Below, piece by piece: positions 1,145 through 8,766 of a stretch of 9,602 bases of DNA. The position numbers and the translations under genes are program-made. The stretch is from a virus (lineage: Duplodnaviria; Heunggongvirae; Uroviricota; Caudoviricetes). The stretch is from the IMG/VR virus record IMGVR_UViG_2695420708_000010; one strand, given 5' to 3'. Every line of letters starts with the position of its first letter. Position 1 is the first letter of the stretch. Below the pieces are notes generated by a model. It ran no database searches. It worked only from the letters and a program-made list of their open reading frames with translations, and was not told the DNA's origin.

Positions 1145-1221
1145 TGGACCGCCATCGGGGACTTGAACCCCGCGCAGCCAGCTTCGAAGGCTGGCGCTCT
1201 TTCCTGATGAGCTAATGGCGG
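1145..1221 (-). tRNA. argN: tRNA-Arg, anticodon UCG (reads CGA/CGG), 77 nt with encoded CCA
   Basis: Hand-folded: acceptor CCGCCAT/ATGGCGG, D stem GCTC/GAGC, anticodon stem CCAGC/GCTGG with loop CTTCGAA, T stem CGGGG/CCCCG with loop TTCAAGT. Unusual 5' C. Symbol from memory; not verified. Confidence 0.8.
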
Positions 1222-2751: not shown

Positions 2752-2869
2752 GTCTTTTCCTTTTCCGGTTAACGTGACACACCAATAACTCTTGTCGAAA
2801 AAGCCAGCAAGCTGAAAGACAGGTATTCACCGCCACCAGCGCGTTTACTGTACTGACGCGATTTCAGTC

Positions 2870-2896
2870 ATAAAAAACCCGCTCGGCGGCGGGTTG
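2870..2896 (-). terminator. tR'-like terminator, second copy (identical to 5209..5235)
   Basis: Minus-strand RNA A-CCCGC-CGCCGA-GCGGG-UUUUUUAU; lies inside the 2870..3394 repeat block. Confidence 0.7.
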
Positions 2897-2942
2897 TAGA
2901 AACTCTTCTAACGTCAGGCATAAAACGCCCATAGTTATGACG

Positions 2943-2970
2943 AATTTACCACAGATTCCGGAAAAATCAA
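2943..2970 (-). promoter_or_regulatory. PR'-like late promoter, second copy (identical to 5282..5309)
   Basis: Same sequence as the promoter downstream of the intact Q gene, offset 2339 bp. Confidence 0.4.
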
Positions 2971-2975
2971 CCTTG

Positions 2976-3394
2976 TTACCTAGTTACCTTTTTTAACTGC
3001 CGCTCAGCCCATGCTTCTTCAATATCAAACCGGGTCACCAGCGCATCATAAAATTTCTTAACTGTTTTTTCCCATGACGCGCGTGTTATCTGGTTTGTCA
3101 CCTCGCATATAGCATTAAATGCCTCCGTTGATGGTAGTCTTTCATAGCCACGACCACCACAACGCTGGCAGTCTCTGATAACAGGCATACCACGTTTTAC
3201 CGACTCTTCACGATGAATGGCGACACCACGCCCACGGCAATCCTTACAGGCGGTGGAAACCTCACCCTTTCCGCCACACTCCGGACAGGCAACTTTTACC
3301 ACCTCCCTGACTTTTTTCCATTCTTCCCAGTAAGACGGATACACACCTTTCGTACACTTTGCCCATACCGGCGGCTTACCATCCGGATACTGGA
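2976..3394 (-). pseudogene. 3' fragment of a Q-like antiterminator gene (C-terminal ~139 codons with the CxxCxGxG zinc-finger repeats), fused at 3394/3396 to the AT-rich module
   Basis: 2870..3394 matches 5209..5733; the intact gene's N-terminal ~134 codons are missing. The 191-aa track ORF 2976..3551 takes its first 52 codons from AT-rich module DNA with a GTG start and no SD. Confidence 0.8.
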
Positions 3395-3604
3395 AAGTGT
3401 TTAAATGCCATGGTTCTTTCCACCATCTGAAAAATAATTCTTTAAAATACCTGACATGTAATACAGAAAAAACACAAAACCATACCTTAAATAAAAACCT
3501 GATTATCAAGCAGATATGCATGGATAAACTACAAGACGAGATATAAACCACCCTGCATTTAAATAAACAATAAACAACATCAGAAAAATAATTCTGCTCT
3601 ATGG

Positions 3605-3631
3605 TTTACATTCAAAAATATCATTTATACT
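3605..3631 (+). promoter_or_regulatory. Candidate sigma70 promoter for ORF 3672..4007 (copy of 361..387)
   Basis: Identical sequence to copy A. Confidence 0.4.
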
Positions 3632-3671
3632 TTTCAGAACATCACCAGCAAGGCATAAACAAGGAAACTAA

Positions 3672-4007
3672 ATGAAGTGGATTGTGATTGATACAGTTAT
3701 CCAGCCATCATGCGGAATATCTTTTTCAGTCATATGGAGTAAAATAAAATTAATAATCTGGTATCAATCGGATGCTTTCTTACCTCCTGAAAGTATATTT
3801 ACACTGACTCACACAGGCATCATGCTCAATAACAAAGTGCTACCTGTAACCATTTACAACGTAGTACCATTCAATAAAACATTCTGGAATTCAATCAAAA
3901 ATAGCCAGGAATGCCCTACAAATACAGATAACGTATTGAATGAATGCTTTAATAACCGTTGCACTCTGCAAATATGTCCTTATGGACTAAAACAACAAAG
4001 TCCATAA
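3672..4007 (+). CDS. Hypothetical 111-aa protein, second copy identical to 428..763
   Basis: ORF track; identical translation; same RBS and promoter. Confidence 0.45.
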
Positions 4008-4041
4008 GGAGTTTACTCACATCTGACAAAATCAATATAAA

Positions 4042-4063
4042 CAGCCCCTCCGGAGAGGGGCTG
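4042..4063. terminator. 9-bp stem hairpin, copy of 798..819
   Basis: Identical sequence to copy A. Confidence 0.5.
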
Positions 4064-4287
4064 GAGAGTGGCGCTATGTGCCATTGCATGGTGCCGGGTG
4101 CCTCCCGGTGAATTCAGTACCAGCACCTGAATCCGCGATTATCCCATATACCTACTCGCTGATTGCCCCTCCGCACAGGGGGATTCACCATGCCAGTTTC
4201 TTTTAACAAACTCCCCGCAAACCAGACAACAGTCAACCGCCTGAATTGTGAAGTATTTAAAAATTTCTCCCGCTAACTGATACCCGG

Positions 4288-4781: not shown

Positions 4782-4918
4782 TAGACCGTATAACAAACAC
4801 TCAATCAATACTTAACAGAACTTTTATTTTTGACAAACATAAAATATTTTCAACAATATCCTGAGCCAGGTATATTTCAGTATAAGGCTCTGCCGGAAGG
4901 AATCTGGAAGAATGAATA

Positions 4919-4995
4919 TGGCGCGCTGTACTGGATTCGAACCAGTGACCGATTGCTTAGAAGGCAATTGCTCTGTCCGGCTGAGCTAACAACGC
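4919..4995 (-). tRNA. argO: tRNA-Arg, anticodon UCU, 77 nt; differs from the 1055..1131 copy by one acceptor-stem change giving a U-G pair
   Basis: Same hand-folded cloverleaf as 1055..1131; plus strand reads GCGCTGT where the other copy reads GCGTTGT. Confidence 0.85.
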
Positions 4996-5008
4996 TGAAT
5001 ACCGATAA

Positions 5009-5088
5009 TGGACCGCCATCGGGGACCCGCCCCCGCACCAACAACCCTGTTATCATGTCGTCTGCTCTTCCTGATAAGCTAATGGCGG
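5009..5088 (-). pseudogene. Degenerate tRNA-Arg-like element: acceptor stem and D arm conserved, anticodon arm, variable loop and T loop replaced
   Basis: The 5' ~25 nt and 3' ~17 nt align with the intact Arg-UCG tRNA at 1145..1221; the middle (AGACGACATGATAACAGGGTTGTTGGTGCGGGGGCGGG) gives no anticodon stem-loop by eye and the T loop lacks TTC. Confidence 0.55.
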
Positions 5089-5095
5089 TTTGTGA

Positions 5096-5171
5096 TGGTG
5101 GCCCTTGCTGGATTTGAACCAGCGACCTGGCGATTATGAGTCGCTCGCTCTCACCACTGAGCTAAAGGGCC
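5096..5171 (-). tRNA. ileZ: tRNA-Ile2-like, anticodon CAU, 76 nt; identical to 1229..1304
   Basis: Identical sequence to the other copy. Confidence 0.85.
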
Positions 5172-5208
5172 GGGAGCAGAATAATAACGGTCCGTAATTA
5201 ATTCCGCA

Positions 5209-5235
5209 ATAAAAAACCCGCTCGGCGGCGGGTTG
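5209..5235 (-). terminator. tR'-like rho-independent terminator between the Q-like gene and the tRNA cluster
   Basis: Minus-strand RNA A-CCCGC-CGCCGA-GCGGG followed by UUUUUU; about 80 nt downstream of the Q stop. Confidence 0.7.
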
Positions 5236-5281
5236 TAGAAACTCTTCTAACGTCAGGCATAAAACGCCCATAGTTATGACG

Positions 5282-5309
5282 AATTTACCACAGATTCCGG
5301 AAAAATCAA
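5282..5309 (-). promoter_or_regulatory. PR'-like late promoter (-35 TTGATT, 16-bp spacer, extended -10 TGgTAAATT); would give a ~65-nt transcript ending at tR'
   Basis: Hexamers at 5309..5304 and 5287..5282 on the minus strand, immediately after the Q stop codon (5315..5317). Confidence 0.4.
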
Positions 5310-5314
5310 CCTTG

Positions 5315-6136
5315 TTACCTAGTTACCTTTTTTAACTGCCGCTCAGCCCATGCTTCTTCAATATCAAACCGGGTCACCAGCGCATCATAAAATTTCTTAA
5401 CTGTTTTTTCCCATGACGCGCGTGTTATCTGGTTTGTCACCTCGCATATAGCATTAAATGCCTCCGTTGATGGTAGTCTTTCATAGCCACGACCACCACA
5501 ACGCTGGCAGTCTCTGATAACAGGCATACCACGTTTTACCGACTCTTCACGATGAATGGCGACACCACGCCCACGGCAATCCTTACAGGCGGTGGAAACC
5601 TCACCCTTTCCGCCACACTCCGGACAGGCAACTTTTACCACCTCCCTGACTTTTTTCCATTCTTCCCAGTAAGACGGATACACACCTTTCGTACACTTTG
5701 CCCATACCGGCGGCTTACCATCCGGATACTGGATCTTGTTTGTAAAAACCTCGCTTTCAATAAATTTTTTTCCGTGACAGCAGGGGCACTGTTTTTTGCT
5801 CGCCGCGCTACGGGCATAATCTTCAAACGCATACGAAGCCATAATACGCATCACTGCCGGTTTTATTTCTGCCGGGAGTTTTCTTAACGCCGCCACGCGA
5901 TCACACCGACTGAGTGCATATTCTGTCAGCAATTCTGTTGCCCGCTCTCTGTCATTCATACTAATGCCCATTTTCCCAAGGAACGCAGAAACCCCCATCT
6001 CAGCCCGATTCTGTGTCATGCCCTGCGCGGCCATCACATCAGTGATACTCAGCGCATCTTTCGACGTTGAGGCCGATGCATCAGTCAGGCCGGGGGATTT
6101 TGGGGAGTAGTATTTCGGTAAATCTTCCAGTTTCAT
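5315..6136 (-). CDS. Antitermination protein Q-like, 273 aa, with DnaJ-type CxxCxGxG zinc-finger repeats
   Basis: ORF track; position between rusA and PR'/tR'/tRNAs is the canonical lambdoid Q position; ATG overlaps the rusA stop (ATGA); motifs CPCCHGKK, CPECGGKG, CKDCRGRG, CQRCGGRG. Family assignment rests on synteny and motifs, not a search. Confidence 0.75.
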   Translation of the reverse strand: MKLEDLPKYYSPKSPGLTDASASTSKDALSITDVMAAQGMTQNRAEMGVSAFLGKMGISMNDRERATELLTEYALSRCDRVAALRKLPAEIKPAVMRIMASYAFEDYARSAASKKQCPCCHGKKFIESEVFTNKIQYPDGKPPVWAKCTKGVYPSYWEEWKKVREVVKVACPECGGKGEVSTACKDCRGRGVAIHREESVKRGMPVIRDCQRCGGRGYERLPSTEAFNAICEVTNQITRASWEKTVKKFYDALVTRFDIEEAWAERQLKKVTR

Positions 6137-6513
6137 TTTTTGACCTGCCCTTCAAGCATTATGGGATAAATCTTCACCCCCAGACGTCCACCAGATACTG
6201 GCTGAGCACGAACGATATTGATTTCATCAAACTGCTCATCGTCCATTAGCAACCCCGCATGCGTCAGCGCATCCAGCGGCGCTTTCAGAATATTGTCCAG
6301 GTCACGGCGGCGCTTATCCGGTGGTTCTGCAATAATTTTTATTGCCAACCTTCCGGACAGGCTTAATTTCAGCCGCTGCTGGCGAACAATAAGCGCCACT
6401 GCCCGGCGATAACGCTCCCCGGCTTTTGATACAAAATATGTGCTGCCACGACGACGCCAGTAAGTGTTCACCGTCGGCGGGTAAGGTAAAACAAATTCTA
6501 TGCGCTCGGTCAT
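6133..6513 (-). CDS. rusA: Holliday-junction resolvase RusA, 126 aa
   Basis: ORF track; shows the RusA-family DxxRRRDLDN motif as I recall it; usual nin-region position just upstream of Q. Confidence 0.88.
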   Translation of the reverse strand: MTERIEFVLPYPPTVNTYWRRRGSTYFVSKAGERYRRAVALIVRQQRLKLSLSGRLAIKIIAEPPDKRRRDLDNILKAPLDALTHAGLLMDDEQFDEINIVRAQPVSGGRLGVKIYPIMLEGQVKK

Positions 6514-7572
6514 TTATGCTTTCCACTTCAGAACACCCGAATTTCTCGCGTGCATTAAAAAACGAATCAGCAACAACAGCTGACTGCCGTGTTTCTCTTC
6601 AAAATCTTTTACTCCGGCATGTAGTTCGTTACGGCATTTACGGCATAACGGAATAACAAACAAATCATCAGCCTTTGTTCCCATCCCTCCCAGTCCATGA
6701 CCAATGATGTGATGCGGATCATCTGCCTGATTGCCACACGTCATGCATTTCTGCGTTTTTACCCAGCGCGTGTATACAGGCATCTCTTCCCGTTGTGATT
6801 TCTGGCGCTGGAGATACTGAGCCGGTGACTCCGGATCAACGGCAATGCTGACCACCGTCTTTTCCTGTGGTGGGTTCTGTTGCTGGTGGACGTGAGGCAG
6901 TAACGCAATATTTTTTGTGCGCTGCTTCAGTATGCTGGTGGCTGTCTGCTCTCCCGGTATGATGTCGCTTTCACTGTACACAGAGCGAATTTTTTCCGCA
7001 CGCAACCCCAGCGAACGACGTAATACCGCTTCCGGTAGCGCGTCCGCCACCTGATTGCGGACCGCCCACCAGGATAATTCAGCCAGAGATAATTCACGCT
7101 CCTGCGTACCGCTTATTGCGTGACCGATGACGTCAATCATCCATGCTGACAGGTTTTGATGAGCAAGTTGCTCGAGTGATTCGGATGTCTGGTCACGCAG
7201 CTGGTTGTCGCAGTGCCAGCACAACACCATTGCGCCGGTACCATAACGGTGAATGACGGTTTCGCTGTGATGATAATCGCCGTGTGGCCACTGGCAGGAT
7301 TTAATATGGCGCAACAGCCAGTCAGACAATGCACCAGCACCACCAGCAGCACGAATCACCCGTGCGTTACTGAAAAACGGCAGCAATGTTTTGTCTTCCA
7401 CCAGCGGCTGGCGAGCGGCAGGAACGACCCCGGACGGCAGATTACGCATGCTTTTTGGTTCCGGCTCCACCAGTATTCTGCCGTTATGGAATGCTGACAT
7501 TGATTCACGGCCTGGCTTAACGATAACCAGACCGAGTTCCGGTACCAGAACAGGTCGAAGTAATACCCGCAC
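6514..7572 (-). CDS. DUF968-like prophage protein (YdfU-like), 352 aa, with a Cys/His-rich C-terminus (CMTCG...DPHH...CRKC)
   Basis: ORF track; GTG start at 7572 with GGAGG 5 nt upstream; family assigned from memory of Qin-prophage ydfU neighbourhood and motifs. Confidence 0.7.
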   Translation of the reverse strand: MRVLLRPVLVPELGLVIVKPGRESMSAFHNGRILVEPEPKSMRNLPSGVVPAARQPLVEDKTLLPFFSNARVIRAAGGAGALSDWLLRHIKSCQWPHGDYHHSETVIHRYGTGAMVLCWHCDNQLRDQTSESLEQLAHQNLSAWMIDVIGHAISGTQERELSLAELSWWAVRNQVADALPEAVLRRSLGLRAEKIRSVYSESDIIPGEQTATSILKQRTKNIALLPHVHQQQNPPQEKTVVSIAVDPESPAQYLQRQKSQREEMPVYTRWVKTQKCMTCGNQADDPHHIIGHGLGGMGTKADDLFVIPLCRKCRNELHAGVKDFEEKHGSQLLLLIRFLMHARNSGVLKWKA

Positions 7573-8399: not shown

Positions 8400-8555
8400 T
8401 TACTCCTCAGGTTCGTAAGCTGTGAAGACAGCGACCTCCGTCTGGCCGGTTCGAATTCGTACCTCGCAGAGGTCTTTCCTCGTTACCAGTGCCGTCACTA
8501 TGACGGTTAAACAGATGACGATCAGGGCGATTAACATCGCCTTTTGCTGCTTCAT
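8400..8555 (-). CDS. hokD: Hok/Gef-family type I toxin, 51 aa (HokD/RelF-like)
   Basis: MKQQKAMLIALIVICLTVIVTALVTRKDLCEVRIRTGQTEVAVFTAYEPEE is a classic Hok sequence and matches HokD as I recall it; ATG at 8555..8553 with AGGAG 9 nt upstream. The track ORF 8400..8612 is an in-frame 19-codon upstream extension. Confidence 0.88.
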   Translation of the reverse strand: MKQQKAMLIALIVICLTVIVTALVTRKDLCEVRIRTGQTEVAVFTAYEPEE

Positions 8556-8766
8556 AGCCTGCTTCTCCTTGCCTTTCGGCACGTAAGAGGCTAACCTAGA
8601 TTTGCCGTTCATAGATTGAGCCTCAGATTAATGTTAAGCGTCTTGCCGGACGCGTAATGTTAACTGGGGCTTTTCTCTATCTGCCTTTTGGTGTTCATGC
8701 CTGAGACAGATAGCCTCAAGCACCCGCTGCAATTCTACTTAACTCTCCTTTTCCCGCAAACCGTTT

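Follow-up and report, generated by a model that had tools for sequence, protein, structure and literature searches.

The window analysed here is the whole 9,602-nucleotide (nt) stretch of a tailed bacteriophage (Caudoviricetes; IMG/VR record IMGVR_UViG_2695420708_000010), and the subject is an 80-nt element shaped like a transfer RNA (tRNA) at 5009-5088 on its minus strand. The element sits between two intact tRNA genes, in the slot after the antitermination gene Q that belongs to argN, the tRNA-Arg(UCG) gene of the ileZ-argN-argO operon found in 933W-type Shiga toxin (Stx)/lambdoid phages (gene names per AP012540 and AM072972). The window also holds a second cluster (1055-1304) with all three tRNA genes, the argN of which lies 3.9 kb from the element. 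The element cannot be a decoding tRNA. On balance, it is taken to be a non-decoding, tRNA-derived relic (a "pseudo-argN") that would be processed together with its neighbours yet be useless itself. The units concerned are the following.

5096-5171, minus strand: tRNA(CAT) of the ileZ type, intact, the upstream neighbour (ARAGORN; Rfam, 72.5 bits; called tRNA-Ile in other genomes by the Prokaryotic Genome Annotation Pipeline, PGAP)
5009-5088, minus strand: the non-decoding tRNA-like element, 80 nt, in the argN slot (sequence; cloverleaf fold; no tRNA call)
4919-4995, minus strand: tRNA-Arg(UCU) of the argO type, intact, the downstream neighbour (ARAGORN; Rfam, 68 bits)
1145-1221, minus strand: tRNA-Arg(UCG) of the argN type, intact, in the second cluster (ARAGORN; Rfam, 58 bits); shares the acceptor stem, D arm and T stem of the element

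These assignments bear out what the original prediction had said of the position of the element, which is exact in its coordinates, of the integrity of the flanking tRNA-Ile and tRNA-Arg(UCU) genes, and of the clean tRNA-Arg(UCG) at 1145-1221.

The RNA of the element begins with CCGCCAU and ends with AUGGCGGUCCA. RNAfold predicts a full cloverleaf with a 7-base pair (bp) acceptor stem, a 4-bp D stem, a 6-bp central stem, a 5-bp T stem and a 3' UCCA tail, made up as follows.

5082-5088, minus strand: 5' strand of the acceptor stem, CCGCCAU, RNA positions 1-7, pairing with 5013-5019
5064-5079, minus strand: D arm, GCUU-AUCAGGAA-GAGC, RNA positions 10-25 (alignment and fold)
5040-5062, minus strand: central hairpin in place of an anticodon arm, GACGAC/GUUGUU with the 11-nt loop AUGAUAACAGG at 5046-5056 (fold)
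5020-5035, minus strand: T arm, with the CGGGG/CCCCG stem retained and a 6-nt loop, GCGGGU, lacking the UUCRANU consensus (alignment and fold)
5009-5019, minus strand: 3' strand of the acceptor stem, AUGGCGG, with the discriminator U and an encoded CCA (alignment and fold)

The predicted energy is no better than that of shuffled sequences (z = -0.97), and the fold therefore rests on homology and not on thermodynamics. For the commonest allele of the element, a rival central hairpin is predicted, a 7-bp CGAUAAC/GUUGUUG stem with an AGG triloop. In either form, there is neither a 7-nt anticodon loop nor a U33.

When the element is aligned with the argN at 1145-1221, 20 of the first 21 nt are identical, followed by a 1-nt deletion that shortens the D loop while A20 is retained. 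The D-stem pair 13-22 is a U-G wobble in the window allele and C-G in argN and in other alleles of the element. At the opposite end, the last 18 nt, including the CCA, and the CGGGG strand of the T stem match argN exactly, whereas the T loop is GCGGGU in the element and UUCAAGU in argN. The part between, which corresponds to the anticodon arm and variable loop, cannot be aligned and is not homologous to argN; the element is 3 nt longer in all, with the added bases within the central loop. The original prediction of kept ends and a diverged centre thus stands, although the unalignable part is about 28 nt and not about 40. The T arm, which had been described as replaced, keeps both strands of its stem and differs only in the loop, and the centre, in which no stem-loop had been seen, gives the 6-bp stem and 11-nt loop listed above.

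No tRNA model accepts this structure. ARAGORN calls five tRNAs in the window, none of them at 5009-5088, and no transfer-messenger RNA. An Rfam search over 4850-5250 (401 nt) at E <= 10 finds the neighbours, with 72.5 and 68 bits, but no tRNA match on the element, which is also absent from the gathering-threshold scan of the window; the gathering threshold of the tRNA family RF00005 is 29 bits. A bona fide tRNA at 5009-5088, the outcome against which the original prediction had been staked, was thus sought with both programs and not found. An intron or a long variable arm can be rejected, as the element exceeds argN by only 3 nt, all in the central loop. Among the features of a canonical tRNA, the element retains the 7-bp acceptor stem, the discriminator base and the 3' CCA, and it has neither a 5-bp stem with a 7-nt loop carrying U33 and an anticodon, nor a 7-nt T loop of the form U54-U55-C56-R57-A58. 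Partial-length homology to a tRNA combined with loss of the decoding essentials, the anticodon loop and T loop, is what is expected of a tRNA relic. As an argN, the element has the right slot, between ileZ-type and argO-type tRNAs after Q, and lacks the UCG anticodon, with its C35, in a canonical arm. C35 is an identity element for arginyl-tRNA synthetase (ArgRS). A related gene (L029) with a canonical UCG arm and the same degenerate T loop as the element still reaches 45 bits in the Rfam tRNA model.

Several weaker matches to the element and its surroundings were set aside. Those to YrlA, isrK and the Trp leader in Rfam are far below threshold and are due to the neighbouring tRNA or to a terminator hairpin. 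On the same strand, the Q gene (5514-5524) and its duplicate (3175-3185) each contain a complement of the 11-nt loop with a single mismatch, but this pairing is not significant: the window contains seven loop-complement matches against 2.7 expected, six of 200 shuffles do as well, and about 0.15 chance matches are estimated for a 10/11 match. The loop segment GAUAACAGG (5046-5054, minus strand) is identical to 23S ribosomal RNA positions 2447-2455 in the peptidyl-transferase centre (checked in rrlH), probably by coincidence, since the chance probability against a 2.9-kb RNA is about 0.2 and the similarity stops there. Small open reading frames (ORFs) at 4877-5056 (minus strand) and 4830-5117 (plus strand) cover the element and overlap the tRNA genes.

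The centre, which had been called unrelated, is homologous to other tRNA-like elements. In comparisons with shuffled sequences, the 28-nt centre gives z = -0.8 against the centre of argN, z = 3.6 against that of a relative in Yersinia phage YeP1, and z = 6.0 (p <= 2e-4) against that of an element in the E. coli K-12 chromosome, from which it differs essentially by a 4-nt insertion and a few substitutions. Because the centre is so close to the chromosomal one and so far from that of argN, the argN slot of the window appears to hold a different lineage of the same body family and not a point-mutated argN. The chromosomal relative, which surfaced as about 100 identical copies in a metagenome scan that were traced to the E. 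coli core chromosome, is located as follows.

345,334-345,414 of K-12 MG1655 (NC_000913.3), plus strand: unannotated 81-nt tRNA-like element, equal to 3835-3915 of locus L465

Two annotated ORFs, xtpA (b4845) and the beginning of yahM, overlap this element, which lies between yahL and yahM. Its fold is a cloverleaf with a 7-bp central stem, the 6-nt loop CCAGGA and a canonical T arm; the element has no match in Rfam and is preceded 89 nt upstream by a predicted sigma-70 promoter with 11/12 matches. It looks like a conserved unannotated non-coding RNA or, alternatively, a conserved site. It shares the acceptor stem, the core stem ACGAC/GUUGU and the T stem with the window element, and its first 33 nt are identical to those of a phage allele (L205), from which the window allele differs at position 13 (U for C). 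Whereas the chromosomal form, with its T loop UUCGAGG, stands alone behind its own predicted promoter and is strongly conserved, the window allele carries the 4-nt insertion, reads GGG in place of GGA, has a degenerate T loop and forms part of a phage tRNA operon.

The two belong to a wider family defined by the acceptor stem CCGCCAY/RUGGCGG, a D arm with ..GGAAGAGC, the core stem RYRAC/GUUGU, the T stem CGGGG/CCYCG and a non-canonical central loop, all of which the window element possesses. In viral contigs, this acceptor stem is most often found on ordinary tRNA-Arg(UCU) genes, and the body of the family is therefore considered to be a tRNA-Arg body. Loci that combine a tRNA-Arg body with a 6-nt loop, or with a 7-nt loop without U33, include L204, L206, L208, L209, L203, L224, L228, L230, L220, L216, L201, L246 and L124; L246 is YeP1 (3002-3079) and L124 is from Citrobacter amalonaticus. 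The 6-nt loops CAUUAA, CAUCAA, CGUUAA and CAUUAU occur in clusters of the form tRNA(CAT)-X-tRNA-Gly or tRNA-Thr, and other loops are CUCAAU, CUCGCU, CAUUUAU and CGUAAGC (these last two without U33), and CAGGAU in a Citrobacter contig. Such an odd-loop gene is the second gene of many temperate-phage tRNA clusters, where ARAGORN reports "tRNA-???" with a two-base anticodon, and on other relatives Ser(gga) or Lys(ttt). All odd-loop relatives tested score below the Rfam tRNA gathering threshold, among them YeP1, L204, L230, L220, L216, L201 and L124, which share both the tRNA-Arg body and the core stem. The YeP1 gene, labelled "tRNA-Pseudo-TTG" in its record, occupies the same position as the window element: Q and a terminator directly precede it, and the holin gene and lysis functions follow. 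However, the odd-loop relatives in phages have 6- to 7-nt loops (CAUUAA, CUCAAU, CAUUGCC and others) and canonical T loops, in contrast to the 11-nt loop and degenerate T loop of the window element. The canonical T loop UUCGAGN is present in all other subtypes of the family, and even within the subtype of the window it is kept by phiP27, L205 and L199.

Near-identical copies of the element are present in 1609 of 5426 complete E. coli genomes (about 30%); since 1601 of these are copies at >=80% coverage, the element is more than a chance occurrence. The intact argN type is found in 1208 complete genomes. An exact match to the window allele, which is one base away from the common allele (loop AUG... 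versus ACG...), is absent from the complete genomes, where the best identity is 98.8%, and about 96% of the E. coli copies carry a degenerate T loop, judging by identity bands. Among the matches listed, no annotated feature lies under the E. coli copies, and PGAP annotates such clusters as tRNA-Ile and tRNA-Arg only. The element also occurs in phage genome records, namely mEp460, several vB_EcoS phages and the Stx2e phage phiP27. Both phiP27 and mEp460 share the tRNA arrangement of the window, and only ileZ and argO are annotated in the phiP27 record. No paper was found on the element, on the yahL-yahM tRNA-like element or on ileZ, argN and argO together, in a literature that did not extend to the 933W and phiP27 papers, and searches on AgvB, the Pas small RNAs (sRNAs), yahM and xtpA brought up nothing on the element.

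Pattern scans of IMG/VR, anchored on the ends of the element or on both neighbouring tRNAs, reveal how the slot varies. In 107 clusters with a UCG-type middle gene, there are 46 haplotypes of that gene, compared to 4 of ileZ and 17 of argO; the middle (argN) slot is the variable, fast-evolving position of the phage tRNA operon. Many of the UCG-type genes have acceptor-stem or T-stem mismatches. Many argN-type genes in E. coli prophages (for example L135, L129, L181 and L160) with such mismatches (GAAGGCGG and CGGAG among them) or with non-consensus T loops (UUCGGGU) are nevertheless called tRNA-Arg. It seems that the phage tRNA reading CGA/CGG is under weak selection in general. A 66-nt form of the middle gene has no anticodon arm at all (L131, L154 and L156). 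The T-loop alleles make up a graded series, UUCAAGU, UUCGAGU, UUCGGGU, GUCGGGU, GGCGGGU and GCGGGU. Centre and T loop vary independently of each other: phiP27, L205 and L199 have the odd centre together with the canonical T loop UUCGAGU, while in L029 a canonical UCG arm accompanies the degenerate T loop, and recombination inside the gene is therefore indicated. Within the lineage of the window, polymorphisms cluster at loop positions 33-35 (ACG, AUG, ACC or GCG) and in the T loop.

The setting of the cluster suggests how the element might be expressed. All relevant genes are on the minus strand, running from nin-region genes through a DUF968 gene, rusA, Q and a terminator to the three tRNA-sized units:

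6514-7572, minus strand: DUF968 gene
6133-6513, minus strand: rusA
5315-6136, minus strand: gene for a Q-type antitermination protein, directly upstream of the cluster (Pfam PF03589, E = 1.6e-53)
5282-5309, minus strand: candidate late promoter (pR'-like), TTGATT-16 nt-TAAATT, inferred by reading the sequence, with 8/12 matches, below the scan threshold
5208-5234, minus strand: intrinsic-terminator-like hairpin and U tract (tR'-like) between Q and the tRNA cluster (terminator scan; Rfam hairpin alignment to terminator-bearing families)

The terminator, for which Rfam gives only sub-threshold matches (isrK and the Trp leader), is 36 nt from the first tRNA unit. The promoter scan reported neither the TTGATT-16-TAAATT candidate nor any promoter-like site between the terminator and ileZ at the head of the tRNA cluster. 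A weak promoter-like pair followed about 50 nt on by a strong terminator (5208-5314, minus strand) is also the layout of the short pR' leader RNAs of lambdoid phages, such as lambda 6S and StxS-like RNAs.

The favoured reading, that of a useless relic, would then play out as follows. Recombination inside the conserved body of the tRNA probably brought the odd-centre allele into the argN slot of lambdoid late operons. The cluster would be transcribed from the late promoter by Q-modified polymerase that reads through the upstream terminator, so that the element is made together with tRNA(CAT) and tRNA-Arg(UCU). RNase P and 3'-end processing enzymes would excise it, thereby freeing both functional neighbours. 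Bacterial RNase P accepts minihelices made of an acceptor and T stem with a 3' CCA. The predicted fold has these structural prerequisites, a coaxial acceptor/T-stem helix of about 12 bp and a 3' CCA, and because the 12-bp stack and 3' UCCA are intact, these enzymes should still cut the element out. In E. coli, polycistronic tRNA transcripts are separated by RNase P (PMC2190699). The released RNA would not be charged by ArgRS, since it lacks an anticodon loop with C35, and would not decode. In addition, since the window allele lacks the T54/Psi55/A58 loop, the stable tRNA elbow is probably missing and the RNA would be turned over. It is thus most likely an unstable by-product or spacer, and its proposed reason for persisting is its placement between two selected tRNA genes.

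Several observations weigh against a relic that serves no purpose. The element is found in deposited phage genome records (mEp460 and phiP27) and not just in bacterial prophages. No IMG/VR contig has the two flanking tRNAs less than 62 nt apart; the middle slot is, therefore, never seen fully deleted. Haplotype diversity in the 11-nt-loop lineage of the window is 0.67, compared to 0.09 for ileZ and 0.71 for argO, and is thus no higher than that of a functional tRNA gene.

The chromosomal relative is strongly conserved. About 95% of complete E. coli genomes carry it, and 4822 of 5171 records (93%) are 100% identical to K-12, whereas flanks of equal length are 100% identical in only 37% (upstream) and 30% (downstream). 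The 86 metagenome copies contain no non-singleton single-nucleotide polymorphism, compared to 0.08-0.15 per site in the flanks. The chromosomal element is clearly far better conserved than its surroundings and under purifying selection, which also counts against uselessness as a property of the family. The family body is 87-100% identical between subtypes, on a par with the 88-100% of the adjacent tRNA(CAT), while the centre varies (54-88%). That the body is as conserved as a decoding neighbour is suggestive rather than proof, as part of it was fixed by the search words.

Nearly all changes in the stems of the family preserve pairing, a further point against mere decay. In a structural alignment of 26 distinct family sequences, 99.6% of the stem cells are paired (2 of 546 unpaired), although the register of the central stem was chosen to maximise pairing; the alignment was made manually and N-padded because MAFFT misaligned the centre. 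The acceptor stem is near-invariant in this set, with a compensatory change from U-A to C-G in YeP1 and a change from G-C to G-U in L225. As proof of function, however, covariation was rejected: only one pair is compensatory, and the covariation is equalled in 23 of 500 shuffles. The central helix is uninformative in this respect because its all-G/U 3' strand pairs after any transition in the 5' strand. In the phage type with a 6-nt loop, a hand count gave six variable sites in loops and two in stems, both of the stem changes preserving the pair. For the lineage of the window itself, the evidence on selection is equivocal, and its dominant allele is without the T-loop consensus that all other subtypes retain.

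The best-surviving alternative, to be entertained tentatively, is that the element is a functional non-decoding RNA in which the tRNA-like body is a scaffold for processing, stability and protein recognition and the variable hairpin is the working part. It might act as a decoy or sponge for an anticodon nuclease or for CsrA, or as an RNase P-dependent processing module that decides what becomes of the late transcript. The purifying selection on the chromosomal paralogue with its 11/12 promoter, the combination of a conserved body with a loop that varies across phages, the distribution of variable sites in the 6-nt-loop type, and a slot that is never deleted in an element found in phage records and 30% of E. 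coli genomes all speak for such a role. The chromosomal CCAGGA and Citrobacter CAGGAU loops resemble the GGA-in-loop motif of CsrA. The window allele, however, has GGG instead of GGA and no T-loop consensus, and its 4-nt insertion breaks the 7-bp stem and 6-nt loop of the chromosomal form. Family loops of 6, 7, 10 and 11 nt with diverse sequences do not point to any common ligand, the covariation is weak for the reason given, and apart from the share imposed by the search, the uniformity of the body could be kept up by gene conversion from an intact argN in the same cell.

A bolder form of this idea, for the present speculative, would posit an undescribed family of non-decoding tRNA-like RNAs, kept by selection, that is common to temperate phages of enterobacteria and the core genome of E. 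coli. In such a family, the tRNA-Arg body might guarantee processing and stability, a variable hairpin might replace the anticodon arm, and the window element might be a diverged and possibly still active member. Equally speculative examples of its roles would be decoys or sponges for nucleases directed at anticodon loops or for hairpin-binding regulators, and RNase P-dependent switches acting on the late transcript or on yahM.

It is rather improbable that the element matters only as DNA, either as a conserved junction for the exchange of modules between lambdoid phages or as an attachment site, with the RNA being irrelevant. The contexts of 67 copies include 31 upstream and 20 downstream variants over 120 nt, so that the tRNA cluster is a conserved island amid variable flanks; there are recombinant alleles within the element, and in one E. 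coli genome the match to the chromosomal relative ends at position 62 of 81, within the T loop. Yet the neighbouring conserved tRNAs would offer the same homology without any middle element, the window has no integrase gene or attachment-type repeat tied to it, and pair-preserving changes, including G-U wobbles that pair only in the RNA strand, fit a history at the RNA level.

There is little to recommend in-place decay of argN, in which point mutations and small indels would have produced the centre without any external source. The slot, ends and neighbours are those of argN, many UCG-type copies are damaged, and the T-loop series is stepwise, as this would predict. However, the flanks of the centre are close to 100% identical to argN while the 28-nt centre is unlike it (z = -0.8) and like the chromosomal and YeP1 centres (z = 6 and 3.6); decay by point mutation would not spare the ends while saturating the middle, and the mosaic alleles of centre and T loop point to recombination. 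Of the original prediction of a pseudo-tRNA or a tRNA-derived element, the tRNA-derived, non-decoding character is thus upheld, while decay of a tRNA-Arg(UCG) in place is not. Finally, a working tRNA with an unusual anticodon loop, be it frameshift-promoting, recoding or rescued by an intron or editing, can scarcely be credited, for although the cloverleaf and encoded CCA are kept and ARAGORN makes odd calls on relatives, no tRNA model accepts the element, its T loop GCGGGU is without the elbow-forming residues, a bacterial (group I) tRNA intron would need far more than three extra nt, and an 11-nt loop without U33 is not known to decode.

The rest of the window shows traces of rearrangement. 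The segments 152-451 and 3396-3695 are identical, as are 2863-3162 and 5202-5501, and 1042-1344 closely resembles 4906-5211. One module (A) comprises the full Q gene, the terminator, the tRNA cluster with the element, an sRNA of the STnc100 family and an iraM-like ORF. The other (B) begins with a 5'-truncated Q (2976-3551) that keeps its C-terminal Antiterm domain, after which come the terminator region also present in A, a small ORF, a gene for a DNA methylase (1345-2403), the second tRNA cluster, STnc100 and an iraM-like ORF. These tandem late-regulatory modules look as if they arose by a partial duplication or by two lambdoid prophages recombining; strain 131, whose complete genome was the best match among those examined, has a single such module. 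The two STnc100 copies (4033-4222 and 789-978, both minus strand; Rfam, 132-134 bits) lie downstream of their own tRNA clusters, by about 700 nt in module A and about 80 nt in module B, and at a related locus (L131), a match to the anti-GcvB sRNA AgvB adjoins STnc100. The nin region contains a hok/sok-type type I toxin-antitoxin system (8550-8725, minus strand, with an ORF at 8400-8612, minus strand; Rfam sok, 112 bits), and hokD is annotated at the matching place in E. coli 042 and strain 131.

Among known systems, the small stable RNAs C and D of phage T4 (species 1 and 2) may be the nearest functional analogy: they too are non-decoding, belong to a tRNA operon, are released by tRNA processing and have no known role. 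However, they are demonstrated stable RNAs, while the element is a sequence so far, and no kinship in sequence is to be expected. The K-12 genes ptwF and pawZ and the "pseudo" calls of tRNAscan-SE are likewise tRNA-derived and fail tRNA models, but ptwF and pawZ are truncated or attachment-site remnants, in contrast to a full-length element with four stems and a CCA inside a working tRNA operon. The YrlA/Y RNA-like RNAs (RF02553) are also non-coding and have a tRNA-mimicking domain; the match to them has 17.3 bits (E = 0.54) against a gathering score of 69 bits and falls mostly over the neighbouring tRNA(CAT), and the element is not a member of this family. Some phage tRNAs have changed anticodon loops and so evade the anticodon nucleases of the host; they offer a lead for the functional reading but, unlike the element, still decode. 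The element fits the loose class of tRNA pseudogenes and tRNA-like elements, as one of an ordinary kind but with an unexpected pedigree.

For annotation, this means that the pipelines silently skip a tRNA-shaped 80-nt sequence carried by about 30% of complete E. coli genomes, by mEp460 and by phiP27. Strains that seem to have ileZ-argN-argO may in fact lack the tRNA that reads CGA/CGG, which bears on rare-codon supply for late and toxin genes. The occupant of the argN slot is also linked in this way to a strikingly conserved, unannotated element beside yahM in the E. coli core genome. If the family is functional, it would constitute a new class of tRNA-scaffold RNA that is common to host and phage and directly testable in K-12.

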